Origin: Chiloscyllium plagiosum | Taxonomy: Eukaryota | Length of the DNA: 64,000 nt | Reading direction: 5' to 3' | Assembly: GCF_004010195.1 (NCBI RefSeq) | Contig: NC_057757.1 | Coordinates: forward strand, 1,717,907 to 1,781,906 | In this document: positions 1,902 to 46,413 of the stretch, in pieces | How the letters are laid out: each line of letters opens with the position of its first letter | Position numbering within the stretch: the stretch's first letter is position 1 | The notes under the pieces: generated by a model | Databases searched by the model: none | Seen by the model: the letters and a program-made list of their open reading frames with translations, nothing else | Told to the model about the DNA's origin: nothing | Translations under genes and position numbers: made by a program

Positions 1902-2860
1902 CTAATCTACAGGACCTACAAGTACCAAGTGGTAAATAATTATTGCTAGTAAATCTTTGGCATAAGACACACATTGACATGAATACTTTACAATATAGGA
2001 AGATAAAAAATAATTTTAGTTTAGGAATGATTGATTACATTAACACTGGGTAAGAGACATTGTTATCTCCTGAGAGATTGTAAGTAACTCTATATTACTC
2101 GGCTGTACATTGTGGAACTAACTAACCACAAACTGGAACAACTGACCAGGTTCTCCCAGAGAGTGAGCAGGTGGACCTATTCCAAACTGAATCAACCTTT
2201 CCAGGCCGACTGCTTTATGCAGCATCCTTCATAACCATGCAATCTCCCATCATCAGGTTTTGTTTTCATTATCAAGTGTCACAACATTATCAATTCTATC
2301 CAATTTCACCTGCATTACCCATTTTATCCTCCATCTCCACATTGTCTTCAATTATTAAATTACATTTCCAATATCCATCCTATCCTACACTCAATGATCT
2401 TACCTATTCTGTTGAATTGTGTTATGGATGTTTGTTTCTATTATCCTTTTAGTCCACCATTATCTAATTTTGTCTCTATTTCCTTGTTTGAACTCCAAAA
2501 TACAGAGTAGCCTCATTGCCAATTCTATCTAGTTTTGACCTAAATTATTGAGTTTGAACTTGATTATCCAGCTGTCATAGAAACATTGGAACATGAATAG
2601 GCTATTCAGCCCGTTAAGCCTGTTCTGTTATTTAATACGATCATGGATGATTGGACACTTTAATGTCTTCAATGTCCTTCAATAACCAGTTTGATTCAAA
2701 TGTCCAACTTGCCCTCTATTAGCAAGCTCATCTCCCATTATTCATTTTGCTGTCTGTACTTGCTCTCCTTTATCCACTTTTTCCTCCATTTTACAGCTTG
2801 ACTTAAAGGATGCATTTGAACTCTATTATCCATTGTGTTCTCCACTATCTACATGTCCTT

Positions 2861-3360
2861 NNNNNNNNNNNNNNNNNNNNNNNNNNNNNNNNNNNNNNNN
2901 NNNNNNNNNNNNNNNNNNNNNNNNNNNNNNNNNNNNNNNNNNNNNNNNNNNNNNNNNNNNNNNNNNNNNNNNNNNNNNNNNNNNNNNNNNNNNNNNNNNN
3001 NNNNNNNNNNNNNNNNNNNNNNNNNNNNNNNNNNNNNNNNNNNNNNNNNNNNNNNNNNNNNNNNNNNNNNNNNNNNNNNNNNNNNNNNNNNNNNNNNNNN
3101 NNNNNNNNNNNNNNNNNNNNNNNNNNNNNNNNNNNNNNNNNNNNNNNNNNNNNNNNNNNNNNNNNNNNNNNNNNNNNNNNNNNNNNNNNNNNNNNNNNNN
3201 NNNNNNNNNNNNNNNNNNNNNNNNNNNNNNNNNNNNNNNNNNNNNNNNNNNNNNNNNNNNNNNNNNNNNNNNNNNNNNNNNNNNNNNNNNNNNNNNNNNN
3301 NNNNNNNNNNNNNNNNNNNNNNNNNNNNNNNNNNNNNNNNNNNNNNNNNNNNNNNNNNNN
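2861..3360. other. Assembly gap (500 N)
   Basis: Run of N; the round length suggests a scaffolding gap of arbitrary size. Confidence 0.99.
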
Positions 3361-3620
3361 AAATGTCTTTGTATCTTAGCCTGTGTTTTCCTCACCCCTA
3401 AATGACCTCCAAGTGGTAGCTCATGCACCACTCTCAGCACCTCCTTTCTATACCCTACTGGCAAAACAATTTGATGAATCTCTGCCCATTTCTTATCTGG
3501 TTGAATATATGATGGTCTCCATTTCCTCATTAAGGCATCATTCATTAAGTAATAGCACAAGGATGCATTCACTCTCCTTGTTGTAAATGCTTTTTGATGC
3601 AATTGTTTTAACTCATCTTT
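3361..3620 (-). mobile_element. Gypsy-type LTR retrotransposon pol fragment (integrase Zn-binding region)
   Basis: Minus-strand translation YYLMNDALMRKWRP...HQIVLPVGYRKEVLRVVHELPLGGHLGVRKTQAKIQRH matches the H...GHLG integrase N-terminal pattern. Confidence 0.8.
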
Positions 3621-3624
3621 CTGG

Positions 3625-5800
3625 TGCACGATGTCAGGTCTGAGCACTGCCGTTTTAAGGCATCGAATGGCAGTGGCCTCAAAGCGGAAGCCTACCGCTG
3701 CCCTGCTCACTATATCCTGTGGCAGCGACCAGCCAAGACCATTGCTAACCACCACATCCCTGACCCTGGCCACCCTTACCGGGATGGCCCTCCCCTCCAA
3801 TAGCCACTCAAACACGTGAGCATGGAGGTGTGGATTCCTGACCAATGGCTTCATGATGACAGCCGCTACTCCTGCTGGAGGGTAGGCATGATGCAACTCG
3901 ATGATGTTCCAAACAGTGATCAGGTCCTGGTAAAAGACAGGCAGTGTCCTGAGAGCGACCTCCAGACCATCACGGTTGATCAACAGGAGCTGCGTGTCAT
4001 GGTTGAGGTATCGCTGCAAGGCCTGAAGGCAGAAAATCACCACCTGGGTGTGAACACACACTAGCAACTGACTGCTCTCCTCAATAGGAAGACTCAGAAC
4101 CTGTGCTGCGACCCAGCACGTTTTTTTGTCCCAGAAGAAGTGAACCAACATTCTCTGGATGTCAGCAACAAAACCAGGAGGAGGGACCAAAGGGACCAGC
4201 CGGTACCAAAATATGGCAGCAACCAGCTGGTTTATGACCGAACTCAGAGCAGTCCTGTCCAGCTGCCTAGGCGAGCCAAGACCTTGGCCTCCGGCTCCTG
4301 CCAGTTCATGGGACAGGATTCCTCAGCTGGGCTGAGGTAGACACCCAGATAGAGGAGATGGGTGGTACTCCAGCTGAACCCTCGTAACTCGTCCACTGGT
4401 GTGGGTAAATCATGTGGGCCATCACGGAAGCCAGACGAGAAGCCAACAGCCTGGCAAAAACTTTGCAGAAAGTGACCACTCCACGCCAAGAAAGGGACAA
4501 CTCTTCGGTAGTAAGAAACTCCCCCAGGACCTGTGCATAGGCGCTTCCCAGAATGCCCTGAAAAACTCCACAGTCAGCGCATCCAGCCCAAGGGACTTGT
4601 GGTAAGAGCTGTGTGGTAAGAGTGAATTTGGGCCCTGATACCCTCTGGATCAGAGACAAGGGACCCATTGTTGGCCAGCAGCACAAGGAGCTGCTGACAT
4701 TGTGCTGTGCCTTTTTTCTAGCAAGTAGAAGAAGGGGGAGCCGCAGTCCAGGTCCTGGAGGAGCCAGATCAGAGACCCAATGAGCTGCAGGTCTTGGAGT
4801 GCGGTGTTCTCTTCGTACACCCCCTTCAGGGCTGGTCCACATCGGGCTGACTGAGATGTGACTCCAGATCGAACACCACCTCCTCCAACTCCTCAATCCT
4901 GGATTTCCATCTTTTTGTTCACCTCCTCGCATACGCCTGTCAGAAAACGCGGACATGAGCCTTGCCCATGTCCCACCATAGCCTCAGGGAGGGGAAACTT
5001 CCCCGTTTCCTTCTCCAGCTGGCCCAGAACCAACAAAACAAGTCCCAGAACCGCTCATCCTCCAGCAGCAGATTGTTAAAGTGGCAGTACGCGGACCTGA
5101 GCCTCGGGGCTCGGTGTTGTCCTGGGGGAGGGGGCGGCATCACCCGCGGCTGCTGGTGTGGGCTGGGGGGCAGTTCCTTATGTGCCCCACCTTACGGCAC
5201 AGGCGACACCGCACGCCGTCCAGAAGATGTGGTAGGCTGCGCCCTTGTGAAGGAGCGTAAAGGAGCCCTCTGCGACATCCTCCCGGGCCAGGGAAATAAC
5301 ACCTGGCGCTGGAAGGAGTAGATGTGTTTGAGGGCGGGGTCCTTCAGACCAAGCAGGAGCGGTTGGACATCCGAATGGATCTTCCCCAGTGTTTGAAGGT
5401 GGGGGAGAAAGAGCTCGATGGCAATAAAGGGCGGGACATTAGAGATCACAACCCCCTGGGCCGTGATCTCCAATGGGTCAACAGGTAGGTATGTCCTGCC
5501 CACAATGAGCCCCTTCTCCACGGACAGATGGACCGCCTGCTCGGTCTTTACGAGAAACATGGCCTTCCCGTACATGCGGGCTGCAGCAACCATGGCCAGT
5601 GAGCTGACCAGACTAGCTATAGCCTTACTGCAGGCCTCGATAGTCATATTGGGATGGGGATAGGCCTTCACCCCCAGGCGTTTAGTCAGGTGCCTGAAGG
5701 AGGATATGTTTGCAGCTAGGGTTTGAGCAGCCAAGCCTAAGGCAGTGGCTACCCCGGCATAGGTGCGGCTGGGGCCTGCTGTCTTGGGGCTCATCATGTT
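3625..5800 (-). mobile_element. Tx1-clade (L1 group) non-LTR retrotransposon, internally deleted and decayed
   Basis: ORF1-like 5192-5797 (RTYAGVA...AARMYGKAMF...VVISNVPPFI). ORF2 post-RT remnants lie downstream (LLYLGVYL, PPPGFVADIQRMLVHFFWD, LPVFYQDL). GC-rich; EN and RT core largely absent. Confidence 0.8.
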
Positions 5801-5853
5801 TTGGGTTTTAGATTGCCTGACAAAGGCTCAACTAGCATGACTTTGATCACCAT

Positions 5854-6429: not shown

Positions 6430-7357
6430 TACTGTGCCTCTGAGCATTTGCTTCGACAAAAGTAGGGAAGTGATCACAGTGCCCGTTGATGAGATATTTG
6501 TATCATTGGTAGTCACAGGTGAGGTGCTGGAAGACTGGAAGTTGGCTAACATAGTGCCACTATTTAAGAAAGGTGGTAAGGTAAAGCCAGGCAACTATAG
6601 ACCGGTGAGCCTGACATCACAGTGGTGGGCAGGACCAGATGGACCAATGAGCTGAGAAGTGGCATATTGGGTTTAATTCAGATAAATGTGAGGTGCTGCA
6701 TTTTTGGGAAAGCAAATCTTAGCAGGACTTACCATTAAGTGTATAAGGTCCTAGGGAGTGTTGCTGAACAAAGAGACCTTGGAGTGCAGGTTCATAGCAC
6801 CTTGAAAATGGAGTCGCATGTAGAAAGGATAGTGAAGAAGGCTTTTGGTATGCTTTCCTTTATTGGTCAGAGTATTGAGTACAGGAGTTGGGAGATCATG
6901 TTGCGGCTGTACAGGACATTGGTTAGGCCACTGTTGGAATATTGCGTGCAATTCTGGTCTCCTTCCTATCAGAAAGATGTGAAACTTGAAAAGGTTCAGA
7001 AAAGACTTACAAAGAGGATATGGTGGAGGCTGGTACAATTGCAACATTTAAGAGGCATTTGGATGGGTATAGGAAGGGTTTGGAGGGACATGGGCCGGGT
7101 GCTGGCAGGTGGGACTAGATTGGGTTGAGATATCTGGTCGGCATGGACAGGTTGGACCGAAAGGTCTGTTTCCATGCTGTACATCTCTATGACTCTAAGT
7201 TGTTGGAGGGAATCCTGAGGGAGAAGGACTGACTAGTGATAGTCAGCATGGCTTTGTACGTGGGAAATCATGTCGTACTCACTTGATTGAGTTTTTTGAA
7301 GTAACAAAGAGGATTGATGAGGGCAGAGCAGTGGACATGATCTATGTAGATTTCAGT
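6430..7357 (+). mobile_element. CR1 LINE fragments (5' part of the host element of ERV-1, plus a nested CR1 3' piece)
   Basis: DWKLANIVPLFKKG, NYRPVSLTS and LVRPLLEYCVQFWSP motifs. The sequence ...ATCTATGTAGATTTCAGT resumes after 16815. Confidence 0.85.
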
Positions 7358-8021
7358 TGAGGATCCAAAACTGAATACAGGCTGAGGTAGTTGTTGTCAT
7401 GAACAACCGCGTAACAGATGTTCTTAATAACTTAGGTGGCAATAAAATGGCTTCTCAATGCAAATAACATGACAAAATGGCTGCAAGGCTGCAAATTGAC
7501 AATTCTGCTAAAAGCTGCATAAAATGGTTTTTAAGTCTACTATAGCTTCATAAGTGACTAACCACAGTCTGCTTCAATAGAGATTAGCAGACAATGCTCC
7601 CTTTACAGCATAGAAATAACTAGACTAGATAAGACATCACTGGCCATCCTAACTGACCTTCAGGTGCAGGTGCAATGGCTCAGTTAGTGAGATAAGGGTG
7701 GCCTGAGTGTTGGAAAACAAAGTTGGTTTCCAGGAAATATCACTGGACCAAGTAACTGTCAAATAAAGCAATATTGTATATATTGATTGGTAATAGTCTG
7801 AATGTACTCTGCGATCATGGCCTGTATCCTTCTTTGTATCAAGCCATGTGTGCAGCTCCTCCGAGGAATATAGATGTGCACAACCTCTGTGTTTCTGGAT
7901 ACTCTGTACCCAACTGTATGAAGAAATAAATAATGAAGTGTTAAAGAACCAGACCGATTGTGAGTGCTTATTGGCCGATCATGGAACAGAGACCCCTCCC
8001 CGCCCCCCTCCAATTTGGTCA
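7358..8021 (+). repeat. ERV-1 5' LTR
   Basis: Collinear with 16118-16815. Starts TG; AATAAA near 7925; 3' end diverged, so the boundary is approximate. Confidence 0.88.
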
Positions 8022-8024
8022 AAT

Positions 8025-8034
8025 TGGCGTTGTC
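8025..8034 (+). promoter_or_regulatory. Truncated primer-binding site, tRNA-Ser-like
   Basis: TGGCGTTGTC directly after the 5' LTR; 9/10 match to the start of the tRNA-Ser PBS TGGCGTAGTC(GGCAGGAT). Confidence 0.5.
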
Positions 8035-8979
8035 TAAATTGATTTCCAAATTATTCTGTGTAAGATGAAACACAGAAATATTGTGATATGTAACAAGACT
8101 ATCAGGGTTTGAGAATGTCGAGAAGGTTGTGCAGAAATCATTAGTCTTGCTCATTGTCGGGTTGTTGATTAGTGACAGTTTTAAATTGAGATTATCTTCT
8201 CTGTTGTGTCTGTTTGGCTTGGCTTGTCTTGCTTTGTCTTGTTTGCTATGGTTTTGTTCTGTTTGTCTTGGTGTTTGTTCTTGGTTTATGAAGTATAGAA
8301 GGTGGTTGCTACTTTTGTCACGTTAAAGAAAGAAAAAAGCTGACCAGTGATACAATTCTCACACATTTGGTTAGGCTGCTATGTGCTACAGCCAGGGTTA
8401 ATGAGGCTAAACTCCCTAACTTTGACTGTTCTGGAATTTGAGTGCCTCATTACCCTTAAATGTGAGACAGAGAGAGAGAGAGAGACAGAGACTCAGTGCT
8501 GATTCCCTGCAGCTGGCAGAACGTTTAACCCTTTAAGATTCGGTTTGAATGCACATTTGCTTGTTGGCGATTGAATGTTTGTGTTCTGTTCCCTGGAGCA
8601 TGAGATCTGGGACTGTTTTGAATTTGATTTCCATTTGTCGCAGTATATCTGGGCCTCAGGTGCAGAATCATTCTATTCCACGATGAGAACAGGTCTCTTG
8701 TTCAATTTTAGTTATAATCTAAACCTAACATTGAGGAAAATCACTTCAGACTTTAACATTTGCTCATTGAGTGGAGGAATTGCATGAACCTTATTTAATT
8801 TAGTTAAATTTTGTAAATCTGGAAGTATAAAGATAGATTCAAAATATCCCATAGCAAGAGCATTGTTTCAGAAAATGATACGAGCAGATTTTTTTTCAGA
8901 TTTGTTTGTTTCAACTTAATTTTAAGACAGCTGTGTTTCATTCGTGATTATGGTGTGCCAGTCATAGCTTTATTTTATA

Positions 8980-9105
8980 GGTAAAAACAATGAGTGCAGA
9001 TGCTGGAAACCAGATTCTGGATCAGTGGTGCTGGAAGAGCACAGCAGTTCAGGCAGCATCCGAGGAGCAGTAAAATCGACGTTTCGGGCAAAAGCCCTTA
9101 TCAAT
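8980..9105 (-). mobile_element. Penelope-like element 3'-terminal (pLTR) fragment nested in ERV-1
   Basis: Reverse complement of the ...GGGCTTTTGCCCGAAACGTCGA...GCTGCCTGA...CAGCATCTGCA terminus seen in other copies. Confidence 0.65.
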
Positions 9106-9140
9106 TCTCCTCCCTCAATGACAATTGAAGTTTCAATTCA

Positions 9141-11630
9141 ACATAAGACCATAAGAAATAGGAGTGGAATTAAGGCCATTCAGTCCATCGAGTCCACTCC
9201 GCCATTCAATCATGGCTGATCGGTATTTCAACGCCACTTACCCACACTCTCCCCGTATCCCTTAATTCCTTGCGAGATTAAGAATTTATCAAGCTCTGCC
9301 TTGAAGACATTTAACATTCCAGTCTCCAATGTGCTCCGTGGCAATGAATTCCACAGGCCCACCACCCTCTGGCTGAAGAAATGTCTCTTAATTTCCATTC
9401 TAAATTGACCCCCTCTAATTCTAAGGCTGTGCCCACTGTCTCCCTGCCCAATGGAAACAATTTCCCAGTGTCCACCCTTTCTAAGCCATGCATTATCTTG
9501 TAAGTTTCTATTAGATCTCCCCTCGACCTTCTAAACTCTAACGAATACAATCCCAGGATCATCAGCCGTTCCTCGTATGTTAGGCCTACCATCTGTGCGA
9601 ATCTCCCATGGACACGCTCCAGTGCTAGCATGTCCTTCTTGAGATGTGGGGCCCAAAACTGGACACAGTATTCTAAATGAGGCCTAACCAGAGCTTTATA
9701 AAGTCTCAGTAGCACATCTCCGCTTTTACATTCCAACCATCTTGAAATAAATGACAACATTATATTTGCTTTCTTAACCATGGATTCAACCTGCAAGTCA
9801 ACCTTTAGAGAATCCTGGACTAGCACTCCCAGATGTCTGTGTACTTTGGCTTTATGAATTTTCTCACCCTTTATAAAATAGTCCATGCCTGTGTTCTTTT
9901 TTCCAAAGTGTAAGACCTCGCATTTGCTCACACTGAATTTCATAAGCCATTTCTTGAACCATTCTCCTAAACTGTCTAAATTTTTCTGTAGCCTCGCCAC
10001 CTCCTCAGAATCACCTGCCTGTCTACCTAACTTCGTATCATCAGCGAACTTCGCCAGAATGCCCCCAGTCTCTCCATCAGATAATTTATATATAAAGTGA
10101 ATAGCTGCGGCGCCAACACTAAACCCTGCGGGACACCAGTTGTCACCAGCTGCAAGTCTGAAAAAGAATGTTTCATACCAACTCTCTGCCTTCTGTTAGA
10201 CAGCCAATCCTCAATCCATGCCAATAACTCATCTCGAACACCATGGGCCCTCACCTTACTCAGCTGCCTCCTGTGAGGCACCTTGTCAAAGGCCTTTTGG
10301 AAGTCTAGGTAGATGACATCCACCGAGTTTCCCTGGTCTAACTCTACCATATTATGTTGTTACCTCTTCAAAGAATTCTAACAGGTTTGTCAGGTCCATC
10401 CTCCCCTTACTAAATCCATGATGACTTGTTCTAATCCGCCCCTGCACTTCCAAGAATTTAGAAATCTCATCCTTAACAATGGATTCTAGAATTTTACCTA
10501 TAACTGAGGTTAGGCTAATCGGCCTATAATTTTCCACGTATTATCTTGATCCTTTCTTGAACAAGGGGGTTACAACAGTGATTTTCCGATCATCTGGGAC
10601 TTTCCCTGACTCCAGTGACTTTTGAAAGATTACAACCAATGCCTCTGCTATTTCTTCAGCCATCTCCCTCAGAACTCTAGAATATAGCCCATCCAGGCCA
10701 GGAGATTTATCAATTTTTAGACCTTTTAGCTTATCAAGTACTTTCTCCTTTGTAATGGCGACCATACTCAACTCTGCCCCTTGACTCTCCTTAATTGCTG
10801 GGATAATACTCATGTCTTCCACTGTGAAGACTGACACAAAAGTATTTATTAACTTCTTCAGCTATTTCCTTATCTCCCATCACCAGCCTTCCTGCATCAG
10901 TTTGGAGCGGCTCAATCTCTACTTGTGCCTCTCATTTGTTTATGTATTGAAAGAAACTTTTACTATCATTTCTAATATTACTGACTGACTTACCTTCATA
11001 TTTGATCCTCTCCTTCCTTATTTCTCTCTGTTATCCTCTGTTTGTTTTTGTAGTCATCCCAATATTCTGATTTCTCAGTACTCTTGGCCACATTATTGGC
11101 TCTCTTGTTTTTCTGTGAAACTTTGTCAGCCATGGTTGTCTAATCCCATGCCCCTGGTCCTGACCACTGCTTGGAGGTCTGTACATAACTCCCATTATGG
11201 TTTTTTTTGCCTTTGTGGTTCCTCAACTCCACCCACATCATCTGATCCTATGTCATTTAATGCGATAGATTTAATTTCATTCTTAACTAACAGGGCAACC
11301 TCGCCCCCTCTCCCTACCCCCGTCTTTTCGATAAATTGTAAAACCTTGGATGTTTAACTGCCAGTCCTGAACCCCCTGCAACCATGTCTCTGTGATGCCT
11401 ACCACATCATAATCATTTACGATGATTTGTGCTGTTAATTCATCTACTTTGTTTTCAGGTAATGCTAATTTTCTTATCTTCATGATTTCCATCACCTCTA
11501 CCTAAGTTATCGATCCTTTTTGCTTCATTCCTAGTGTGCCTTGAACTTAAACCCCGCACGTGCTAACCTGCTGCTTATCTTTCTACTTGACTCCATACTC
11601 CCTGTTGCTTTCCCTTTCCCCTGACTCACA
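9141..11630 (-). mobile_element. CR1 LINE (EN/RT remnants) nested in ERV-1
   Basis: Minus-strand ORFs with YDVVGITETWL (EN), NYRPISLTS, YLDFQKAFDKVPH, GVPQGLVLAP and LVRPHLEYCVQFW. Confidence 0.9.
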
Positions 11631-12659
11631 AGTTTAAACATTTTCACGCAGAGGTGGTACATGTATGGAATGCGTTACCAGAGGAAGTAGTGGAGGCTAG
11701 TACAATTACAACATTTAAAAGACATCTGGATGGGTATATGAATAGGAAGGGTTTAAGAGAGATACGGGCCAGGTGCTGGCAGGTGGGACTAGATTAAGTT
11801 GGGATATCTGGTCAGCATGGACAAGTTGGACCAAAGGGTCTGTTTCTGTGCTATATAAAGTCCTAGTGACCATTCTATTTATCCTTTATATTGTGATAAA
11901 TCATGCAACAAAATTAATATCCTATTGTTAATATCTGCGTTTTTGGATTCGGCTATTATTTGTGCATTAGAAGTTTTTTGTTACCATGTGAGTAGACAAG
12001 ACATTTTAAAGCCCTGCAGTCACTTCATGGCCTGTAGCATTGTAAATGAGCAATGACTGGTCAGGACCGCTTAAGGAACCTAATCTAGGATTTACATTAA
12101 GGGACTAGGACAATGGATTTCAGAGTTGGAAACTGTATATATTTTACATTTTAAATATTGAATACTGAATAAATGAATTTCCAGTTTATATTGATGACTT
12201 TTGAAATGTCTTAGCCACTTGTTCAGTTCCTCCTCTGAAATACAGGTAATGATTATTTTATTTATTCTCTTTTTAATAATCAATTGTATTAGCACTGACT
12301 CACAAAATCAGAATTAATTGGCAGGATCGCTTGGCTTTATTCCTTTACACATTGTCAGTGATCAGTCTCGTTGCCTCATAGTTAATTTGAAGTATGGCTG
12401 CATTAATTCGTTGCTAACTAAAGAAAGGAAAGATATCTTACTGGCCAGATGACAGTATTCTCCATGTGATTGGGGGATAGAGGTATGTACAGCAGATGGA
12501 ACTCCCAAAAGCTGGGAGGTGTTCATAGCTGACTGTGAATGGGTAGATGAAAGAATAAAAGGGACATGAGAAACAGTGTCAGGCCACTAAGGCTAAGGAA
12601 AATACAAACAGGGTTAAAGCGACAACGCTGTAAAATAAAGAACTTAGGCTCGGGATTCC

Positions 12660-13000
12660 GAGTAGAATCTATGTCTGGCATACCGACCTTCTTTGAGGAT
12701 GGGGATTTTATTCCTGGATATCAGCTGAGCCCCTGACATCTCCTGATTGTCCCCAGCACACACACACACACCCTCCCCTTTCCTTCTTTTGAAAATGAAG
12801 CATCCAGTCTTCGTAGCCGATATCATGGGGATGAGTGGCCTGCGCCATCCTAAACCAGGGCCCATCCTGGGAACCAGAGTAATGTTGATGAAGCATGCCC
12901 CTGACCGCAAGAACAAACCAGCCCAGTTTGCTCAATACGTCCAAAGGACGATACAGATGTAAATGCAGTAAAATTCTGGGAGTAGCCCGAATACAAATGG
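12660..13000 (+). pseudogene. ERV-1 gag-like remnant
   Basis: RVMLMKHAPDRKNKPAQFAQYVQRTIQM is homologous to ERV-2 RVMLMNQTPDRKEKSVQLDQYVRRTIQV. The gag assignment is positional, between leader and pol. Confidence 0.5.
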
Positions 13001-13199
13001 CTTGTGTTGTAAGACTGAAATACGTGGCCATCTGTCTGACGGAAATGGTTTACAATTGAAAAAATAATCGAGAAGCTGAGTCACGTTTGTTTAACCCTGT
13101 GCTTTTGCAATGTTTTCCTTCTGGTGTCACTGACATGATCCAGACAAACAACATGAACTAGTCCAGGAATTTCCAGTTGCAAATGAGGTGAGCAGTGGT

Positions 13200-14224
13200 T
13201 TTCTATTGGGATGACCAGAACTAGACTGAACTACTATGCAAGTTACAGATAAAACTGATTATACCCAGCACCCTCATGATCCCCAATGTCATGTGCCAGC
13301 CCCGACAGGGTTGATTGGGACCAGGATACCCACTGGGGGTCGAAACTACCTCAGATGCCCACCCAGCGACCACAGCTGAGCAACGTTTTCCCGAGAGGAC
13401 CCTAGAAATGGGGACAGGCAGGCCTCAGTATTACACCTTTGTGACTGGGAACAAGACAGCAAAATCCCCCAAGGACGAATGGCTGGCCCTTGCTTTAACT
13501 GTGGAAATATGGCCATTTGGGAGTGATGTGTCTTTAATGTTACCTTGGAGCTAATGCGGACAATCAACATGCTTGCGTCCTTGCAAAAGGAAAATCTGCT
13601 AATGTTCACTGACTCACTGTTATACTTTTGGTGTGACCCACGATTATGGAGCCTTGTGGGAACATAGAGAATTTTTAACCCCCACAGGGTGGCATTATAG
13701 TAATGCTGTTTTGCCCAATCAATCTGGCAGTTATCAAGATGTTTGGGTCACGCTGAGGCAACTGATACGGTTTCCAAAGTAATGGGTAGGTGGAGTCTGC
13801 TGCCATGCAGGCAGCCTTACATGCCAAACTTCTGGTCACATTGGGCCTCCAGCAAAACCCAAGTAGAGACAATATGGGGACAGATTTGCCAGACCTGGGT
13901 ATGGTACAGAAATCACAGGAAAAGTCCCCTGCTGAAGAGCATAAACTATGGCCTCAAATAGGGTACTCCCTCGATACTCAAACCAAAATGTGGGTAACTT
14001 CTGCTGGACATGTTTGTGCTCCTTCTTTGCTGCTGCCTATTTTAGTTGATTATGTGTATTATTGTACACACTTGAGTAAGGAGGGAATGGTTAATACTCT
14101 ATTACAATGGACATGCTTTTGGCTCCAACCTCGATGGGAGGGACCCTTCCAGGTTCTCCTCAACATCCCTACTGCTGATAAGGTCACCGGGCACCTCCCC
14201 CACCATTGCAAGGTCATCGGATGA
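13200..14224 (+). pseudogene. ERV-1 pol remnant (RNase H / integrase pieces, heavily deleted)
   Basis: THLSKEGM (integrase Zn region) and LQPRWEGPFQVLL...HHCK (integrase C-terminal WxGPxxV motif); multiple stops and frameshifts. Confidence 0.7.
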
Positions 14225-14229
14225 GCCCC

Positions 14230-16060
14230 TCGCAAGGGGTGAGATGATGAAGATTGAACTAACCCTGATATGTGGATTCGTCATCATCGGCATTAATACT
14301 CAAGAAGGGACTATTTATCAGTGTGCTCCTGAACAACCAGAGGCTGCGTAACATTTATGCCGAAAAGTTGTCCTTATGGGCCAAGAGACTGATTCCTTCG
14401 ATGCATGAAACATTACCAAGATTGACTGTCACAATGGTCAACTGCATCAAGAAGATTGGACAGTTCGTTTACAGGACAAGTCTCAATGGCTTTTACCTTG
14501 TCAAGGTGTTTTATGCCAGTTTGATTACAGTTGTGCTATGGGTGGCCCTGTAAGCCTTGCCTCTATTCAAAGAGGTCTAAATTGGCGTGCCGCAAAAGAG
14601 AAAAGGGGGAAATGTTATCTTTCACCAACAATCTGTTTCTTCAAAGTCACAATAAAATATTTGACTGGGATGAAGTGGTCTCTTAAGGCCTCACATCAGC
14701 GTTGGACTTCTTGACCCCCTTTCCCCCTCCCAATGACGGAGTATAACACTTCTAACGTGTTTACCAGACATAATGTTTCTTTTGACTATTACTTATCCCC
14801 ACCTGCTTGGTGCTTATGGACTTCCTCTAATAAGTCTGGGGTAGCCTATCCAAATTGTTACAACAGTACAGGATAGGGGTGTGCTTACATAAATGTGACT
14901 AAGACTATTCTATGTACCTTGGTCAAATGTATTAACCGCTACTACTCCCCTGTGGGGCCTTGCATCTCATGTGTATGCCTACGAGAGGAGTGTGTCCCGG
15001 TTATTACCAGTGTTTAGGCTCTTCGTGGTAAGGGTAACAGAACCACCCACCTTCATCTTCCCAATTGTGGGATGGAAGGAACTAGTCTGGGACAATAACA
15101 GCATCTCTGTCTTTTTATTGAACAGCTTTCACCCCAAGCACCCAGGGCGACCATACTTTGTAGCCATGGACTACCCATACATTCAGGGTAGTCACAAAGA
15201 CAAGCCTGCTTCTTATTGGGAAGCCCCCTCCATCAGCTATACTAAACCTGGTTACTATTTTTTCAGCCAAGGCAGAGTGACCAACTTCCTCGTTCTTGAT
15301 GAAATAGGTACTCCCCGTGCTGTCGCTGTAGGGACAATTTTCCAGACTACTGTTCCCTGTCCAACTACCTGGGAACGAGGTTGGGGTTTCCCTACCAAAA
15401 CGTTCAGTTTCACCTGAATTCTGCACACATTGGAGAGATGCCAAGGCTTTGGGCAACAGTAAAGCCCAGTCTGTGGACTTGGCATTTCTTAGTGCTTTTT
15501 CCTGCAGGAATTATTAGCCACCCAAACTGAAATTATCTGACTTGCGGCCTCACCCTCTTGGACAACAAGAAGGCTCCAGCATTAGCAGGTGTTAAGGGTA
15601 TGCTCTCAGAATTACGTCTATTTTCCCAGCAAAACCGGTACGTCCTCGACTACCAACTCGGCAAAGAGGATGGGGTTCGCGCCATAGTAAAGGGCAAGTG
15701 TATGATGGGGGTTACCGACCTCATCGAGAATATTACCAAGCATGTGGATAACATCCACACCTTCCTCAATCAAATGACAGAAGGCACTGGATTGAGAGAT
15801 TGGGGTTTTGGCTCATTGTACAACGGTTGATAAATCTGGCAATGTATATTGGTATTATTTTAATTTGTCTCTTTGCTGGCATTGCTATTGTTAAATGTAT
15901 GATTGCCAAGCTAATAACTTTTGTTGACAACAGTGGTTCCCCCCAGAAGATGCTTCTTCTCCATCCAAATGAAGGTGAGGAGGAGCGGTTTCCCACCCTT
16001 GCTTCCTCCTCTTTGGAGGAGGAAGTATGGCAGGCTCTAGTGTCCATTGGATTGGACTGA
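14230..16060 (+). pseudogene. ERV-1 env remnant (SU + TM), frameshifted
   Basis: ISD-like ELRLFSQQNRYVLDYQLGKEDGV, then a degenerate Cys motif, then hydrophobic TM LINLAMYIGIILICLFAGIAIVKC. Confidence 0.85.
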
Positions 16061-16117
16061 TCTAATCTATGCCCTCCCATCCTATGGTGTGGTCATGGAA
16101 TGACGGAACGGGGGAGT

Positions 16118-16815
16118 TGAGGATCTGAAATCTGAATACAGGCTGAGGTAACTAGTTGTTGTCAGGAACAACCACTTAACAAATGCTCTTAATAACTTAG
16201 GTGACAATAAAATGGCTTTTCAATACAAATAACGTGACAAAATGGCTTTATGGCTGCAAATTGACAATTCTGCTAAAAGCTGCATAAAATGGCTTTTAAT
16301 TCTGCTCTAGCTTCATAATTGACTAACCACAGTCTGCTTCAATAGAGATTAGCAGACAATGCTCCCTTTACAGCAATGAAATAACTAGACTAGATAAGAC
16401 ATTACTGGCCATCCTAATTGACCTTCAAATGCAGATGTAATGGCTTGGTTAGTGAGATAAGGATGGCCTGAGTGTCGGAAAACAAAGTTGGTTTCCAGGA
16501 AATATCATTGGACCAAGTAACTATCAAATAAAGCAATATTATATATATTGATTGGTAACTGAATGTACTTCGCGATCATGGCCTGTACCTTTCTTTAAAA
16601 GTATGAAAATGTCTTTGTTTTAAACCATGTGTGCAGCTCTTCCGAGGAATACAGATGTATACAAGCTCTGTGTTTCTGGATGCTCTGTAACCAGCCGTAT
16701 GAACAAATAAAGAATGAAGTCTTAAAAAACCAGACCGATTGTGAGCTTTTATTGACCGAGCATGGAACAGAGAGAACCAACCCCCCTCCCCACTTCCCAG
16801 GGGTCCAGATCTTCA
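16118..16815 (+). repeat. ERV-1 3' LTR
   Basis: TG...CA, preceded by the purine tract GGAACGGGGGAG, followed by TSD CAGT. Confidence 0.9.
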
Positions 16816-17935
16816 CAGTAAGATATTCAGCAAGGTTGGATCTCATGAAATACGAGGAGAACTAGCCATATGGATACAGAGCTAGCTTGAAAGTAGAAGA
16901 CAGAGGGTGGTGATGGAGGGTTGCTTTTCAGACTGGAGGCCTGTGACCAGTAGTGTACCACAAGAATCAGTGCTGGGTGCACTACGTTTTGTCATTTATA
17001 TAAATCATTTGGATGTGAACATAAAAGGTATAGTTAGTAAGTTTGCAGATGACACCAAAATTGGAGATGTAGTGGACAGCAAAGAAGGTTACCTCAGAAT
17101 ACAATAGGATGTTGATTAGTTGGGCCAATGGGCTGAGAAGTGGCAAATGGAATTTAATTTAGATAAATGCGAGGTGCTGCATTTTGGGAAAGCAAATCAG
17201 AGGAGGACTCAATGGTGTCGTCCTGGGCAGTGTTGCTGAACAAAGAGACCTTGGAGTGCAGGTTCATAGTTCCTTGAAAGTAGAGTCGCAGGTTGATAGA
17301 AGAGTGAAGACGTTTGATATGCTTACCTTTACTGGTCAAAGCATTGAGTAAAGGAGTTGGGAGGTCATGTTGTGGCTATACAAAATATTGGTTGGGCCAC
17401 TTTTGGAATATTGTGTGCAATTCTTGTCTCCTTCCTATTGGAAGGAGGTTGTGAAACATGAAAGGCTTCAGAAAAGAGTTACAAGGATGTTGTCTGGGTT
17501 GGAAGATTTGAGCTATAGGGAGAGGCTGAGTCGGCTGGGGCTATTTTCCCTGGAGCATCGGAGGCTGAGGGGTGACCTCATAGTGATTTATAAAATCATG
17601 AGAGGCATGGATAGGTGAATAGACAAGGTCTTTTCCCTGGACAGCGAGAGTCCAGAACTAGAAGGCATGGTTTTTTGGCGAGAGGGGAAAGATATAAAAG
17701 GGACCTAAGGGGCAACTTTTCCACAGAGAAGGTGATGCGTGTTTGGAATGAGCTATCAGAGGAAGCGGTGGAGGCTGGTACAGTTACAGCATTTAAAAGG
17801 CAACTGAATAGGAAGGGTTTGGAGGGACATGGGCCAAGTGCTAGCAAATGGGACTAGATTAGGTTAGGATAGCTGGTCAGCATGGACGATTTGGACCAAA
17901 AGTCTGTTTCTGTGCTGTACATCTCTATGACTGTA
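16816..17935 (+). mobile_element. CR1 LINE 3' part (continuation of the ERV-1 host element)
   Basis: WRPVTSSVPQESVLG, SKFADDTKIG, LEYCVQFLSP and LRGDLI motifs, ending in a CR1 3' tail. Confidence 0.88.
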
Positions 17936-19469: not shown

Positions 19470-22190
19470 GAGTTAAAAGTCACAAAACACCAGGTTGTAG
19501 TCCAACTGGTTTAATTGGAAGCACTAGCTTTCTGAGCGCTGCTCCTTCATCAGGTAGTTGTGGAGTACACAATTGTAAGACACAGAATTTATAACAAAAG
19601 TTTATAGTGTGATGTAACTGAAATTATACATTGAAAAATATCTTGTTTGTTAAGTCTCTCATTTGTTAGAATGACCATGTTAGTTTCGCTTCTTTCATAT
19701 GTAAATCGCAAAACTTTTTTTTAAACGTTACATTCTCAAGTGAACTTTAATAATTGGTGTCAGCCCAGATAATGTATTGGGTATTAGTACCTCTCTGTGC
19801 TGCTGTCTGTGCCATAAAGTTTAGATTGATACTAATCTAAAAAATGAATTAACAGAATCTTACTTGGATTCATGCAGTTTTTGAGCAAAGTACAATGTAA
19901 CTCTGCAAGTACAAATTCACCCCACAAACTAATATGTGTATGTGTGCATGTGGGTGTGCGTTTGGGGGGGGTGCAGTTGGTGTGGTTCTGAGTGTCTGTG
20001 AGAGAGAGTGTATGTGTGTGTGTGAGAGTGTAAAGGGGTCTAGGCCTGTGAGAAGGTGCATGTGGGAGTGTGTGTGTTTGTCTGTGAGAGTGCCAGCCTG
20101 TGTGTGTCTGTGGGAGTACCTGTGTGTGTGTGTGTGTTCTGCACAGCATGCAACACATTATCAGTGAGGATGAGCACCTCGCCAAGACCTTCCCCACACC
20201 TCCACTGCTCGCCTTTAAACAAACCTCAAACAGATCATTGTTGGTAGCAAACTGCCTGGCTTTCAGGACAACTCCATACAGCCCTGTCCATAAGACGTAG
20301 GAGTGGAAGTAAGGCCATTCGGCCCATCGAGTTCACTCCGCCATTTAATCATGACCGATGGGCATTTCAACTCCACTTACCAGTATTCTTCCCGTAGCCC
20401 TTAATTCCTTGTGACATCAAGAATTTATCAATCTCTGCCTCCACTGCACTCCGCGGCAATGAATTGCACAGGCCCACCACTCTCTGGCTGAAGAAATGTC
20501 ACCGCATTTCTGTTCTGAATTTACCCCCTCTAATTCTAAGGCTGTGCCCACGGGTCCTAGTCTCCTCGCCTAACGGAAACAATTTCTTAGCGTCCACCCT
20601 TTCCAAGCCATGTATTACCTTGTAAGTTTCTATTAGATCTCCCCTTAACCTTCTAAACTCCAATGAATACAATCCCAGGATCCTCAGCTGTTCCTCGTAT
20701 GTTAGACCTGCCATTCCAGGGATCATCTATGTGAATCTCAGCTGGACACGCTCCAGTGCCAGTATGTCCCTCCTGAGGTGTGGGGCCCAAAACTGGACAC
20801 AGTACTCCAAATGGGGCCTAACCAGAGCTTTATAAAAAAGGCTCAGTAGCACATCGCTGCTTTTATATTCCAACCCTCTTGAGATAAATGACAACATTGC
20901 ATTCGCTTTCTTAATCACGGATTCAACCTGCATGTTTACCTTTAGAGAATCCTCGACTAGCACTCCCAGATCCCTTTGTACTTTGGCTTTATGAACTTTC
21001 TCACCATTTAGAAAGTAGTCCATGCTTGTATTCTTTTTTCCAAAGTGCAAGACCTCACATTTGCTCACGTTGAATTTCATCAGTCATTTCCTGGACCACT
21101 TTTCCAAACTGTCTAGATCCTTCTGCAGCCTCCCCACTTCCTCAGTACTACCTACCTAACTTCGTATCATCGGCAAACTTCGCTCATTCTCTGCAGACAA
21201 GGATGCCCTGAGGCATGGTACATTGGGGAAACCGAGCAGAGGCTACGGCAATGGATGAATGGGCACTGCACAACAATCAACAGACAGGAGTGCTCCCTCC
21301 CAGTTGAAGAACACTTTAGCGGTCCGGGACATTTGACCTCGGACTTTCAGGTGACCATCCTCCAAGACTTCGGGATAGGCAGCAGTGGAAAGTGGCCAAG
21401 CAGAGGCAGATAGCTAAATTCGGTACCCATAGGGATGGCCTCAACCAGGATCTTGGGTTCATGTCACACTACAGGTGACCCCATTGTACTATACGCACAC
21501 ACACACACACAGGGACTACAGGCACTCCTATACACACACTCCCGCAGGCACTCCTTTCTGCACACTCCCACACAGACACGCACCCTCTCACAGACCTAGA
21601 CCCCTTTACACTCACACACACATACACTCTCTCACAGACACTCACAGCCCCACCACCACCACCCCCCACACACACCCACATGCACACATACACATATAAG
21701 CTTGTGGGGTGAATTTGTACTTGCAGTGTTACATTGTACTTTGCTCAAAAATTGCATGAATCCATATATGATTCTGTTAATTCATTTTTTAGATTAGAAT
21801 CAGCCTAAACATTATGGCACAGACAGCAGCACAGAGAGGTACTAATACCCAATACATTATCTGGGCTGACACCAATAGTTAAAGTTCTCTTGAGAATGTA
21901 ACTTTTTAAAAAAAGTTTTGCAATTTACATATGAAAGAAGCGAAACTAACATGGTCATTCTAACAGATGAGAGACTTAACAAACAAGGTATTTTTCAATG
22001 TATAATTTCAGTTACATCACACTGTAATCTTTTGCAATAAATTCTGTGTCTTACAATTGTGTACTCCACAACCACCTGATGAAGGAGCAGCGCTCCGAAA
22101 GTTAGTGCTTCCAATTAAACCTGTTGGACTATAACCTGGTGTTGTGTGATTTTTAACTTTGTACACCCCAGTCCTACACTGGCATCTCCA
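19470..22190 (+). mobile_element. Penelope-like element with inverted 5' pLTR (fold-back), interrupted by CR1
   Basis: Arms ~19470-20135 and ~21495-22160 are inverted copies. GIY-YIG remnant at ~21184-21270 (LILCRQGCPEAWYIGETEQRLRQWMNGH). Hammerhead-like motif in each arm. Confidence 0.85.
20289..21183 (-). mobile_element. CR1 LINE 3' fragment nested in the Penelope-like element
   Basis: KFNVSKCEVLHFG, LVRPHLEYCVQFWAPH and LRGDLIETYK motifs; same family as 9141-10050. Confidence 0.9.
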
Positions 22191-40760: not shown

Positions 40761-41329
40761 TTATTAGTAACAGGAAGAGAGTGTCAACATACTCATCTGT
40801 AGTAAATTGTGTGACAAATTGTGACAAATCTGATGACATATGGTTAAATTCTGGATTTGATTTTGAGACACTTAATCAGTAACATGTCTTTGAACTTAAG
40901 CAAATAACTCGTATTGACTGAAGGAAGCAGAGTTCTCTTGTCAGTCAAAAAGTTTAACTCTTATTGAGACTAACATGTCATAATCTATACTTTAACAAAA
41001 CTCTAATATGCCACAGCTCCTAGTCTGGTATACTTGGGTAGCGGTGAGTTAATGGTTGAATTGCCTCCTTGCAACCATGTATTGAGCCATAATAGCCTCC
41101 TCCGAAAGTCCCCAGCATCACAGAAGCCAGTCTTCAGCCAATTTGCTCCACGTAATATCAAGAAACCACAGGAGGCTCTGGATACTGCTAAGGTTGTAAC
41201 AACATTTCAGTAATGGTACTATAGATGTGCTTCAGAGCTCACTGCACCCCTAGCCAAGCTATTCCAGCTACAATATTTGTATTTACCAAACTATGTGGAA
41301 AATTGCCCAGGTATACTCTGTACACACAA

Positions 41330-41920: not shown

Positions 41921-44657
41921 GTCCCTCCTTTTTCTTTTCTTAGTGAAAGAAGCAGGTCAGGATTTTCAACAAAAGAGGGAATGTATCCAGAGCCAGGGGG
42001 ATTGTCCAGAGGGGGAGGCTCAGAATCGGGACGGCTAGTCCTCAGAATCTGAGGTGTCAGCACTGTTAGGGCTGGGAATCCAGACTCAGTGCCAGTGCAG
42101 GGGTTCGCTGCGAGGGGGACTTTGACCAGCCAGGCTGACGATGTGATGGAGGGTAGCAGCAGTGAGCCATAGAGCACACAATCCTGCTTAATGAAACTAA
42201 CAAGGACCACGAAAAGTACAAAAAGACAACAGCAAAGTCAATAAGCCCTTGTAAGAGGGCGCTGCCCCAAGACTCGAGCGATGAGCCCACCTATCTTCAC
42301 AAGAGCCATCAGGAGCAAGGTTCCCTCTAAGACGGTGCTCTCTTTCGTCAAGTTCCATTCATCCACTCAAGTCTTCTGCTGATTTTGACCGCTGTGCGGG
42401 TGGAAACTCACAAGACACGGGCCTTCCCCCCTAGGCTTCAATTTTACCCGGCGCCAATTCTTAGGCTTGGCATACCTGAGACTGTAAACTTTGAAGAGTT
42501 TTGGTTAAGTTATGCAGGTATTTCCCACTTGTCCACCACTGTTATGACAATATTCTCAGTCGTTGGGGTGGTTCTGATTCATTTACTATATACATTTACT
42601 ATTATTAGACAATCTTCGTAACAATGTACTTGAGATAATTCTATAAAATCAAGTTATAGGCAAGTGAAAGGGCCCACCAAGCAAGGGTCCTGCCAGGAAT
42701 GCTCAGTACATCACTAATATTTACAGGTTTTTGTAAGGCTCGTTCTAATTACTGGATTAAGTGATCTGCAGTCATAACTGCGTATAGGCCCAAGGAGTGG
42801 CATTATACACCTGAATTGTCCTTCGAACATATTGATCTAATTGGACGGATTTCTCCTTGCGGTCAGGGGTTTGGTTCATTAACATTACTCTGCTTTCCAA
42901 GACAGCCCCTGTTTACAGATGGATCTGGCCACTCACCCCCATGATGTCGACAATGATACCAGTTACCAATACTGGACCCTTCATCTTTAGAGTAAGGGGA
43001 GGTTTATAATAAGGGGGTGTGCTGGGGACTTTCAGGAGATGTTAGAGTCTCAGTGAGTATCCTGGAATAAAATCCCCATTCCTCATCCATATCAATGTCA
43101 TCCCAAACCTTAAATAATATTGGTATGCCAGACATAAGCTCAGGATGCTACCTACCCCCCCTTCTTTTTTACACTTACCATTGTATTGCCTACTTCCATT
43201 GCTAATTGGATGTACAATACTCAATTGTTTTAATGATTTGGAGATGTCGGAGTTGTTTTAAGGGATGGTCCAAGTGAACATTAATCAATGCAGCCATGTT
43301 TTCAACTAATCATGAGACAAAGACACAGATCACTGACAATGTGTGAAGGTATAAAAACTAAGTGATCTTGCCAATTAATCCAAATTATGTAACTCTGGAC
43401 TAATACAAATGGTTTTAAAATATTGACTAATATAACCATATTGTTAATGAGAGATTGAAACTGAATAAGTGACTAATGCATTTCACAGTTAATTAATAAG
43501 AACAAACAGATTCTAAAATCACAGAAATGACTCAAAGCTGCTTAGTTTTGCAGATATGAAATTGTATCATTTATGTTCTATTACGTGCATATCGCACTCA
43601 ACTTATTAAATCACAAATTTCCTCTTTTTGAGTATGAGTTCTGTCTGGAGGCTTCAATATAAATGGAAATCAATTATTTAAAACCCAAATTTACAATATA
43701 AAATGTGAACAGTTTCCAACCCTGTAATCCAATATAATTACCTGGTTCTAGTCTCTCAATTTAAATCCCAGGTTTGGTTCCTTAAGTGGTTCTGATCAGT
43801 CATTGCTCATTTATAGTGTTATAGGGTGTGAAATGACTGTAGCTGCATTAATCAGGTCTTCTCTACTCACATGATAACAAAATGCTTCTTATGCACAATT
43901 GATGACTTAATCCAAAGACACAGATATGAACAACAGCACCTTAACTTTTGTTACATAATTTTTTTTCCTCACAAAATAGTGTTGAACTGGAACTTCAACT
44001 CTCAGTGAGGAAGGGAGACTGATAAAGAATAAAGCTACGACTTGCACTCCGTACATACAAATGAGGTGCAGCAGTCTCAAAGTTATGTGGAAACAAACGA
44101 GACTGAAAGTTCACTGTAACTCCTCCACTTAATGAGCAAATGTTAAAGTCTGAGGCAATTGCCCTCAATGTTAGGTTTTGATTATTTTTAAGAAATGAGC
44201 AGACACCTATTTTCATCCTGGAACAGAATCATTCCGCACTCAAGGCCAGGGTACAGTGCTACTGCTTTTACTGCCTTTAGTCAATCCTTTAATTAGTCCG
44301 ACACCTAGGGATGATAGGGGTGAAACTGATCTTTGGCAGTAACATGAAATTATGGAGGGGTTGAGAGCAGGTTTATATTGGTGTCAAATAGTGCAAAAAA
44401 ATCTGAGGGAAAGGTTTTTTTTAGATTGTAATGTTGTCTTATGCCATAGTAAACTGATTTGAATTTCATGAAAACATAAAAATATGACTAGTTAGCAATT
44501 GACCGTACTGACCTCATGGTCTATAAGAAGAACATTACCAGATCTCGAGCTCCAGGGAACAAAGCATAAACATTCAGTCACCAACAAACAAGTGTGCATT
44601 CAAACCAGACCACAAAGAGTTAACCACTCTACAAGCTTCAGTGACTCAGAGCTGAGA

Positions 44658-44693
<36 letters not shown>

Positions 44694-44966
44694 CAATGTT
44701 TCCCTATTCCAGTTTTTAGTTTCTGTTGATTTCTTGTTTGTAAGGGTAATGAAACATTCACATTCCAGAACAGTCAAAATTAAGGAGTTTCAATTCGAAC
44801 AATATTTTCAAGCCAAGTTGTCCGTGCCTCTGCATTAGTCTATGACCCGGGGGAAATAGTAGGCTAAATTCATTAAAGTCTGGACATCCTGAGACAAGCA
44901 ACTATAAATACTGCAGTTTTGTACAAGCCAATTAAAAATGTTGGGCACTAGAGTGGATCAGGGGTG

Positions 44967-45290
44967 TTAGATTAGATTAGTTTACTTACAGCGTGGAAAC
45001 AGGCCCTTTGGCCCAACAAGTCCACACCGACCCGCCGAAGCGCAACCCACCCAGACCCATTCCCCTACATTTACCCCTTCACCTAATGCTATGGGCAATT
45101 TAGCATGGCCAATCCACCTAACCTGCAAATTTTTGGATTGTGGGAGGAAACCGGAGCACCCGGAGGAAACCCACGCAGTCACGGGGAGAATGTGCAAACT
45201 CCACACAGAGAGTTGCCTGAGGCGGGAATTGAACCCAGGTCTCTGTCACTGTGAGGCAGCAGTGCTAACCACTGTGCCACCGTGCCGCCC
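44967..45290 (-). mobile_element. HE1/V-SINE-like SINE, near full-length, nested in ERV-2
   Basis: Head GGGCGGCACGGTGGCACAGTGGTTAGCAC on the minus strand, V-domain, (CTAAT)n tail. Confidence 0.9.
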
Positions 45291-46413
45291 ATGAAACATC
45301 CACCGGATCTCGGAGTGGGTCCAGGGTTTGTCAGGTGGAGTTTCACCATCATAAGCCTGGGGCAAACAAGTTCTTTATTACCAATCTCTGTAAATTGTGA
45401 GATGCTTTCACCAACATGTGCTGTCCGGAGATTAGGACCCTGTTGAGTACTTGCACTAGTAACTTGTGGTCAAGAAGCGCAAACTGTAGCAGTGTTTCTA
45501 ACAGCATTCTGTCCCTGGTCAGCTTTCCTCCTCATTTGGGAAACGACAACAGCAGCAATCCCATTTGGGATGGTAATTTTGGGGGACTTAGGGGAATAGG
45601 GCGCCAGTATGGTAGGAGGGTTTCGAAAGAGTTCCCAGGATGCTGACCGCGTTGCAACTGGAGGGGCTGATAGCTCTTAGCCACTTTCTTAAAATCAATA
45701 AGGGAATCTCCTACCATAAGTATTGCATTTCGCATGTTTACCGTGGTGTTTCAGCGTCCCCTCTGAGGGCACAAAAGGTGGGGGGGTCCAACCTGCACAG
45801 CAGGACAAGATTGCCTTGTCCCCAGGGCTGGCACTTCGGTCTTACTTGTAAAGTGATTCGATCCCATCCTCACCTCCCAAGTCCCATATGCACAACAGTC
45901 ACCTACAGGCAAATGAATAAGACACAAACAAAGACAAACAGCAAAACAAACCAACAAGACAAAACACTGGCACCAGGGTCAGTTCCTCAAGGCCTCCCTA
46001 AGCCCGGCAATCAACCGAGTTTGCAATTCTAAACATTTAGATCTGTCCATCTTCCGTCTTGCCTCAGGAGATTAGTCTGCAGGCTCAGGTCAGGAGTTTG
46101 CAAGTTAAGAAGTTTAGAGAGGCTATCTGTCCATCTTCCATTTTACCTCGGGGGATCAGCTTGCACGCTCAGGTCATGATTAAACACTTACCTGAATGTG
46201 CTAATTTAAAGCGATCTTTCCAGTCTTCTGCCTCGCCTCAGGGGATCAGTCTGCAGGCTCTGGTCAGGATCACGCACTTAACCAGTTGTAGCAATCTTGA
46301 TTAGCCCCACACAATACTCACATTTACTCATACACCAAATTAAGTATTGAAGGCACTAATTCAGGTCCACGCAAGACCCCATAATGAAGGGGATCCAGCC
46401 GGCTAATGCCAGT

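Follow-up and report, generated by a model that had tools for sequence, protein, structure and literature searches.

A shared AT-rich non-coding cassette in defective mosaic endogenous retroviruses of Chiloscyllium plagiosum

Retroviral mosaics are made by co-packaging and template switching, and the integrase sets the length of the target-site duplication (TSD). In plants, the non-autonomous, Gypsy-derived LARD elements carry a long shared non-coding internal domain with a reported conserved RNA structure. Here we describe two endogenous retroviruses (ERVs), ERV-1 and ERV-2, that lie in a 64,000-nt stretch of the Chiloscyllium plagiosum genome (assembly GCF_004010195.1, contig NC_057757.1, positions 1,717,907 to 1,781,906 of the forward strand; hereafter the window). 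They share fragments of one continuous, AT-rich, non-coding segment of about 1.6 kb, which we call the cassette. A long shared non-coding internal domain is what these elements have in common with LARDs, but conserved RNA structure was not found here.

Several animal systems are further analogues. Harlequin-type elements are mosaic class I human ERVs (HERVs), re-integrated with the aid of "midwife" helpers (Vargiu et al. 2016, PMC4724089). Like the elements described here, they are defective recombinants of several lineages that recur at different flanks with an unchanged internal mosaic, which is ascribed to co-packaging and to jumps of the polymerase. The present case differs in its fish host and in a non-coding AT-rich cassette found under at least six types of long terminal repeat (LTR), and the likeness drawn here is one of anatomy. 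In ERV-W, about 2 kb separate the primer-binding site (PBS) from gag; this region is a mosaic with another ERV and holds an AG-rich repeat and a splice donor and acceptor (Grandi et al. 2020, PMC6995185). A long mosaic region between PBS and gag, with a repeat and putative splice sites, is common to both. ERV-W, however, has full gag-pro-pol, a putative pre-gag open reading frame (ORF) and spliced processed copies, whereas here there are two broken gags, no ORF and putative splice sites. ETn, in the mouse, is a non-coding LTR element that is mobilised in trans by MusD, its less numerous coding relative (PMC6466679). ETn is class II, with one helper and one LTR lineage; here the elements are class I-like, with several backbones and a mobile internal cassette. 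CrocERV29/31 also carry non-viral-looking cargo at the cost of viral genes (Chong et al. 2014, PMC4299795), but that cargo is a recognisable host ORF, and here neither a host source nor an ORF was found. We propose, with a rough probability of 0.55, that the cassette is a largely neutral passenger of Harlequin- and ETn-like mosaic ERVs without reverse transcriptase (RT), spread by recombination.

An earlier note, made by a model from the sequence alone, had described four collinear non-coding blocks upstream of gag in the two elements and read them as a constrained cis-acting RNA module. Much of that description holds. No mutual alignment of the ERV-1 and ERV-2 LTRs was found, and both TSDs were located, 4 bp in one element and 5 bp in the other. 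The non-coding matches are real, with 72-88% identity and E values of 8e-12 to 3e-58, far above chance. In ERV-1 they cover 8409-8458 (88%), 8464-8617 (79%), 8637-8792 (78%), 8894-8979 (74%), 11898-12199 (76%) and 12184-12408 (72%); the stretch 8894-8979 and the extensions 11898-12012 and 12198-12311 had been overlooked. No long ORF is kept in them, as the note had said: they show neither a period-3 signal nor a Pfam match. The division into four blocks does not survive, since the same match runs continuously in other copies and the spacers are deletions and insertions. When the genome was searched with ERV-2 43250-44800, the 40 candidates scored of 1575 at first look included unbroken matches 700-850 nt long. 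Measured against an uninterrupted relative, L107, ERV-1 lacks the equivalent of L107 2236-2598 and has gained a short interspersed element (SINE) and a cluster of long interspersed element (LINE) pieces; ERV-2 lacks three short stretches and retains about 150 nt lost by ERV-1's family. The cassette has a GC content of 34-35%, against 43-50% in flanking gag.

Comparison of the window with itself delimits both elements. Family letters below are labels of this analysis, A being the ERV-1 type and C the ERV-2 type; MA is the matrix part of gag.

ERV-1:
7354-7357 and 16816-16819: TSD, 4 bp
7358-~7992 (+): 5' LTR, 3' tip and PBS missing
7993..8356 (+): leader remnant and a small F-type first-gag piece
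8362..8979 (+): 5' half of the cassette (blocks 1a, GA repeat, 1b and 2), with about 360 internal nt, including the acceptor-like site, deleted
8495..8617 (+): block 1b, U/G-rich, shared more widely than any other piece
8980..11885: later insertions within the cassette, a SINE-like repeat (8980-9098) and LINE pieces (9145-11885)
11886..12420 (+): 3' half of the cassette (blocks 3 and 4)
12421..13600 (+): second gag remnant, G-type, 5'-truncated and joined mid-MA, with stops and frameshifts
13600..16119 (+): pol remnant reduced to the integrase C-terminus, without RT, and a decayed env-like region
16120-16815 (+): 3' LTR

ERV-2:
46921-46925 and 41325-41329: TSD, 5 bp
46414-46920 (-): 5' LTR, F-type, 58-63% identical to LTRs of RT-bearing F loci
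45890..46413 (-): true leader with PBS, donor-like motif and three ~85-nt repeats shared with F
44790..45890 (-): decayed F-type first gag that spans MA to capsid, with a SINE inserted at ~44964-45292
43250..44790 (-): cassette, continuous, 35% GC; block 1b at 44531-44655, acceptor-like AG at 44521-44522
41921..43146 (-): 3' internal part, with second gag remnant (42800-43146), integrase-end remnant (42419-42669), then unassigned 3' sequence
41330-41920 (-): 3' LTR

Both elements thus have the internal order LTR, leader, first gag remnant, cassette, second gag remnant and integrase end, with an env-like region added in ERV-1. Neither element has RT. The two LTRs of ERV-1 are 87% identical in local alignment and 91% over aligned columns. 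On L107, ERV-1 8196-8287 maps to 1065-1163 and 8288-8356 to 1385-1453; the LTR and leader type of ERV-1 is shared with an H-type locus (L240). The 46 nt at 9099-9144, between the SINE-like repeat and the LINE pieces, are cassette sequence. Other copies of these insertions are present in the window, and 9314-10195 gives a weak RVT_1 match. The second gag of ERV-1 matches the gag of the RT-bearing G1 locus L176 (tblastn E 5e-8 to 2e-4), and DNA matches to L176 and the related L190 begin at 12419-12424, mid-MA. The integrase C-terminus gives a Pfam MLVIN_C match below cut-off (E 3e-4). The region behind it we take to be env-like from an immunosuppressive-domain-like motif; it has no Pfam match. 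In ERV-2, the LTR and leader are about 60% identical to those of RT-bearing F loci (L153 and others). Its first gag matches F gag (54% over 28 aa at 44942-44859, tblastn E 2.6e-5), and the piece 44964-44860 also matches F loci at the DNA level. An apparent GDSL-like motif in ERV-2 resolved as F-type gag.

The position of the cassette bears on what it was taken for. The arithmetic of about 1.5 kb (ERV-1) and 2.9 kb (ERV-2) from PBS to the second gag stands, but the interval is not a leader. About 1.1 kb of it in ERV-2 (45890-44790) is decayed first gag, and in both elements the cassette lies between a decayed F gag and a 5'-truncated G gag. Nor is the length itself unusual, given that pre-gag regions of 423-2000 nt are reported across gamma-like HERVs (PMC6995185). 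Three ~85-nt repeats do lie in the true leader of ERV-2, at 46040-46290 (-), just behind the PBS, and two or three copies occur in F-family leaders. By position they are a better candidate for the real packaging region than the cassette is, and no consensus fold was found for them.

Special conservation of the blocks was the core of the original reading, but the gag shared by the two elements (12694-12966) is 78% identical over aligned columns (73% by BLAST), compared with 74-88% for the blocks. We examined constraint further as pairwise net divergence between families, cassette against gag/pol remnants, with only 3-6 copies each for C, D and E. Between A and C the cassette diverges by 0.07-0.16 and the remnants by 0.07-0.12; for A and D the values are 0.17-0.27 and 0.17-0.26, and for A and X 0.18 and 0.09-0.16. 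Column means inside the cassette-bearing clade are 0.11-0.16 for the cassette and 0.09-0.14 for the remnants. Period-3 power in this clade is not significant in seven of eight regions (p 0.04 in one gag part), so that the gag/pol remnants have diverged largely as dead sequence. Since the blocks are no more conserved than dead gag and pol, shared ancestry of the whole internal region together with LTR exchange explains the ERV-1/ERV-2 pair. Such equal conservation is what the note had named as counting against its own reading. With coding relatives added to the comparison, the period-3 excess is 0.05-0.10 in gag and integrase and 0.001-0.002 in the cassette; Pfam gives no match in the cassette (six frames of L107, three of ERV-2). 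The cassette is non-coding, and a decayed ORF is unlikely.

The shared segment is therefore real and, for the ERV-1/ERV-2 pair, ordinary; its spread over other families is unexpectedly wide. About 12 families carry pieces of it, under at least six LTR types that are mutually unalignable or barely alignable, and all carriers are defective. Family B has the LTR, leader, gag and integrase of G1 (71-85% to L176), with blocks 2b-4 inside MA. These blocks are 75-83% identical to those of A, C, D and E, but B gag and integrase reach only 60-72% to the same families, and none of the 20 G1 loci examined has cassette blocks. J combines an F-like 5' end with the 5' part of the cassette, followed by pro-pol without gag. 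In H, block 1b stands in a true leader position, 160-270 nt before the gag ATG, and L240 joins this leader to an LTR of ERV-1 type. K, M and N have other LTRs and a gag like that of murine leukemia virus (MLV). High-copy K (805-1238 candidates) has block 1, then an acceptor-like site and the ATG of a gag with Gag_p30; M carries blocks 1, 3 and 4. One K locus (L317:300-8000) shows block 1, MLV-like gag and the start of protease, without RT, and a nested family M LTR in its leader. P, whose backbones are G-type and F-type, has a diverged block 1b and behind it an AT-rich tail of another kind. This second cassette type (L186:5880-6300; L190:6220-6700; L360-L367; 177 candidates) is stacked behind one or two gag starts.

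Parts of the cassette are freely lost: block 1 is missing from B and X, blocks 3-4 from K, N, H and P, and the acceptor-like site from ERV-1. Gag starts, integrase ends and LTRs are also shuffled among the same families. Of 242 cassette-bearing loci (duplicates included), 230 have a same-strand ERV backbone within 1.5 kb, and the remaining 12 are mostly truncated copies of one segmentally duplicated family. We considered family X as a host source and rejected it, as it continues into the same ERV junction and forms a segmental-duplication cluster. One cassette-bearing insertion was itself multiplied by segmental duplication (L065, L114, L115, L118 and L251-L266, on C16, C37 and unplaced sequence); L065 runs on into a long tandem array with a period of ~73 bp. 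ERV-2 (41300-46950) is matched, with 0-2 differences over 150-230 nt, by contigs that carry the label of a second organism, which suggests that the ERV-2 insertion is shared with a close relative.

All this raises the question of a donor. From 150 matches to the integrase C-terminus, 40 upstream stretches from 39 places were fetched; they were partly picked for long frames and are non-random, and gaps of N or the 10 kb limit of the stretches may hide some leaders. Some very long "open frames" near integrase matches have no stop in any of the six frames and probably reflect gaps in the assembly. ERV RT is present in 22 of the 40, and only one of these 22 has a same-strand cassette piece (L161, the gag-less J), compared with 4 of the 18 stretches without RT. 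The cassette is absent from all 12 RT-bearing F and G1 loci (L151, L153, L154, L168, L172, L174, L175, L183, L189, L176, L328 and L329), in most of which the leader or first-gag region is visible. By LTR type, F, which has RT, RNase H and integrase in Pfam (L153 and others), is a candidate coding relative for ERV-2, and G1 for B. No large cassette-bearing locus has ERV RT except J, without gag, and L166. The latter was rejected as an RT-bearing element with a full cassette, the cassette being on the opposite strand. H is pol-deleted, with 0.7-2.6 kb from leader to integrase in 13 of 15 loci found by both searches. A complete gag-pro-pol donor with the cassette was not found among the elements sampled.

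The carriers fit the description of Harlequin-like mosaics. The same internal mosaic recurs, all in sense orientation, at different flanks on different contigs in A (14 loci) and B (16 loci). Paired LTRs bound ERV-1, ERV-2, L103, L043, L047, L063 and L312, L317 with its nested LTR being the exception. The elements lack RT or gag, as non-autonomous elements of ETn type do. Candidate marks of a class I (gamma/epsilon-like) ERV are MLVIN_C, above cut-off in F and H relatives and below it in ERV-1, and Gag_p30 in K.

We suggest the following course of events. An ancestral F/G recombinant would have carried the cassette between two broken gags. Its 5' piece, block 1b with the acceptor-like site, likely began as the leader of another ERV lineage. 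Helper retroviruses probably copied the RT-less mosaics, and the cassette probably spread when the polymerase switched templates between co-packaged RNAs. Descendants would have swapped LTRs with different helper lineages and passed parts of the cassette on to other defective elements. Such swaps would also account for TSDs of 4 and 5 bp, the integrase setting their length. That the cassette occurs only in defective elements may be explained by their tolerance of inserts, as they need no intact gag-pol. The mosaic anatomy, the equal divergence, the discordance of LTRs and TSDs and the presence in several backbones are observed. A mostly neutral passenger is favoured because backbone pieces are shuffled and each part of the cassette is dispensable in some amplified family.

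Rfam at gathering score gave no relevant family in the window or in four relatives, nor did a search of the ERV-2 cassette by E value. Folding of single-stranded ERV-2 gave no run of stable windows in the cassette, and isolated hairpins in two of its windows (z -2.4 to -3.0) are not conserved. With RNAalifold, the structure conservation index (SCI) of the cassette was at most 0.19 in 120-column windows on the first three rows per family, and in 70-column windows the best value was 0.46, against 0.38-0.49 in dead gag. The intended positive control, the PBS-proximal leader repeats, also scored SCI 0, and these negatives are therefore weak. For 41 copies of block 1b from eight labelled groups RNAalifold gave no consensus structure, and two named helices fell below shuffles (80.4% paired against 82.1%; 3 against 4.7 pairs changed on both sides). 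H/ACA, C/D and pre-miRNA ideas drawn from motifs seen by eye were rejected, as the motifs are not conserved. The earlier suggestions of an internal ribosome entry site, an export element or a small-RNA cluster find no support. As a claim about the whole set of blocks the cis-acting RNA module falls away; block 1 may still have such a role.

Some observations do speak against a purely neutral cassette, and all of them should be set beside the proposal above. Block 1b is present in A, C, D/E, J, H, K, M, N and P, where the stems measure 0.06-0.29 changes per site, and in L311 only about 160 nt around it are left, between gag and integrase remnants. Conserved columns are clustered beyond shuffles in block 1b (p 0.005, to which a poorly aligned tail contributes) and, over four cuts, in blocks 3-4 (p 0.001-0.075), whereas those of the gag/pol remnants are not (autocorrelation p 0.18-0.98, one window-variance p 0.049). 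Downstream of block 1b, 38 of the 40 non-J copies that retain the anchor motif have an AG that follows a pyrimidine tract and precedes a short ATG motif. Further, equal rates are no proof of absent constraint, as the flanks are not proven neutral. The block 1b tree (100 rows) places J, P, H and C/D/E in separate supported groups and K, M and N near A; the gamma shape of 9.2 for block 1b is counted in favour of a neutral passenger.

These data leave room, at well below even odds, for block 1 (block 1b and the downstream acceptor) as a selected RNA signal: a packaging or dimerisation element in a pre-gag intron that improves uptake by helpers. Stacked leader-plus-gag-start pieces would then open several helpers to one defective element. 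A stronger form, in which block 1 is a portable cis-acting cassette captured repeatedly across unrelated LTR and gag lineages, so that one RNA could ride in the particles of several helpers, seems doubtful to us. Both draw on the recurrence of block 1b in at least nine families and its minimal retention in L311, and on its leader position in H and before the acceptor-like site and gag ATG in K. Its 3' end is a short hairpin-like motif with palindromic hexamers, which are present in A, C, E, K, P and H and in CpG-decayed form in most others. Donor-like motifs occur in all ten leaders scanned, but chance alone often yields such 9-mers. In ERV-W the pre-gag region has an intron and a repeat rich in AG (PMC6995185). 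The acceptor-like AG, however, is missing from all ten J copies with the anchor motif, and the motif itself from H, N, P, D and ERV-1. B and X were amplified without block 1, which is in no complete gag-pro-pol element sampled, and the structure results for block 1b are negative as described. A packaging signal or dimerisation initiation site would also be out of place behind the first gag remnant of ERV-1 and ERV-2; block 1b alone has the proper position, in H and K. In the contig comparison with ERV-2, the 15 joints listed out of 91 all lie inside the SINE and are uninformative on splicing. Two contig sets, presumed to be RNA, gave a summed depth of about 140-200 over block 1b and of 0-16 in the rest of the element apart from the SINE; because copy number and the GA repeat confound this difference, it was not used as evidence.

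Other readings concern the origin or activity of single parts. Capture of blocks 2-4, the AT-rich part, from the host, for example from a 3' untranslated region or an intron, would suit their low GC relative to flanking gag and their absence from RT-bearing relatives, and capture of host mRNA is known in crocodilian ERVs (PMC4299795). We think it unlikely, as nearly all loci lie in same-strand ERV context, no host source appeared among the best matches (40 candidates scored per search) and neither ORF nor Pfam trace remains. Block 1b could instead be a DNA enhancer beside the (GT)n(GA)n tract that raises transcription of its carrier in the germ line or early embryo; this would explain a primary sequence kept without conserved pairing. 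Octamer-, Sox- and forkhead-like words, picked out by eye, are candidates, but such words are frequent in U/G-rich sequence and we regard the idea as highly improbable. A decayed accessory ORF or a small-RNA precursor cluster is scarcely credible: the isolated hairpins in two windows speak for it, and the near-absent period-3 excess, the empty Pfam and Rfam searches and the lack of hairpin conservation all oppose it.

The window holds further repeats apart from the two elements.

1-650: 39-bp tandem array
2826-5827 (-): three long frames (498, 225 and 211 aa), the first with an integrase zinc-binding domain match; probably another LTR element
19471-22158: inverted repeats of 551-675 nt, 88-90% identical and 1.5 kb apart; DNA-transposon-like
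52795-53764 and 63217-63699: smaller inverted pairs
55332-55402 (+): tRNA-like Rfam match (36 bits) that ARAGORN did not call; probably a pseudogene or derived from a SINE

Our literature searches turned up no account of the cassette, though these families may be described in subscription journals, Repbase reports or supplements. A survey of shark ERVs by Pol only has been published (Han 2015, PMC4422223), and surveys anchored in this way would miss these RT-less families, of which each query finds about a thousand candidate loci. If the cassette is neutral, it offers a clear fish case of Harlequin-type mosaicism. It would also warn against reading constraint into non-coding blocks shared by ERVs whose LTRs differ, since these blocks would reflect exchange of LTRs. 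If, on the other hand, block 1 is selected, it would be a cis signal of fish class I retroviruses, one without a description found in the literature, that recurs in about a dozen backbones. Defective ERVs would then evolve by trading signal modules.

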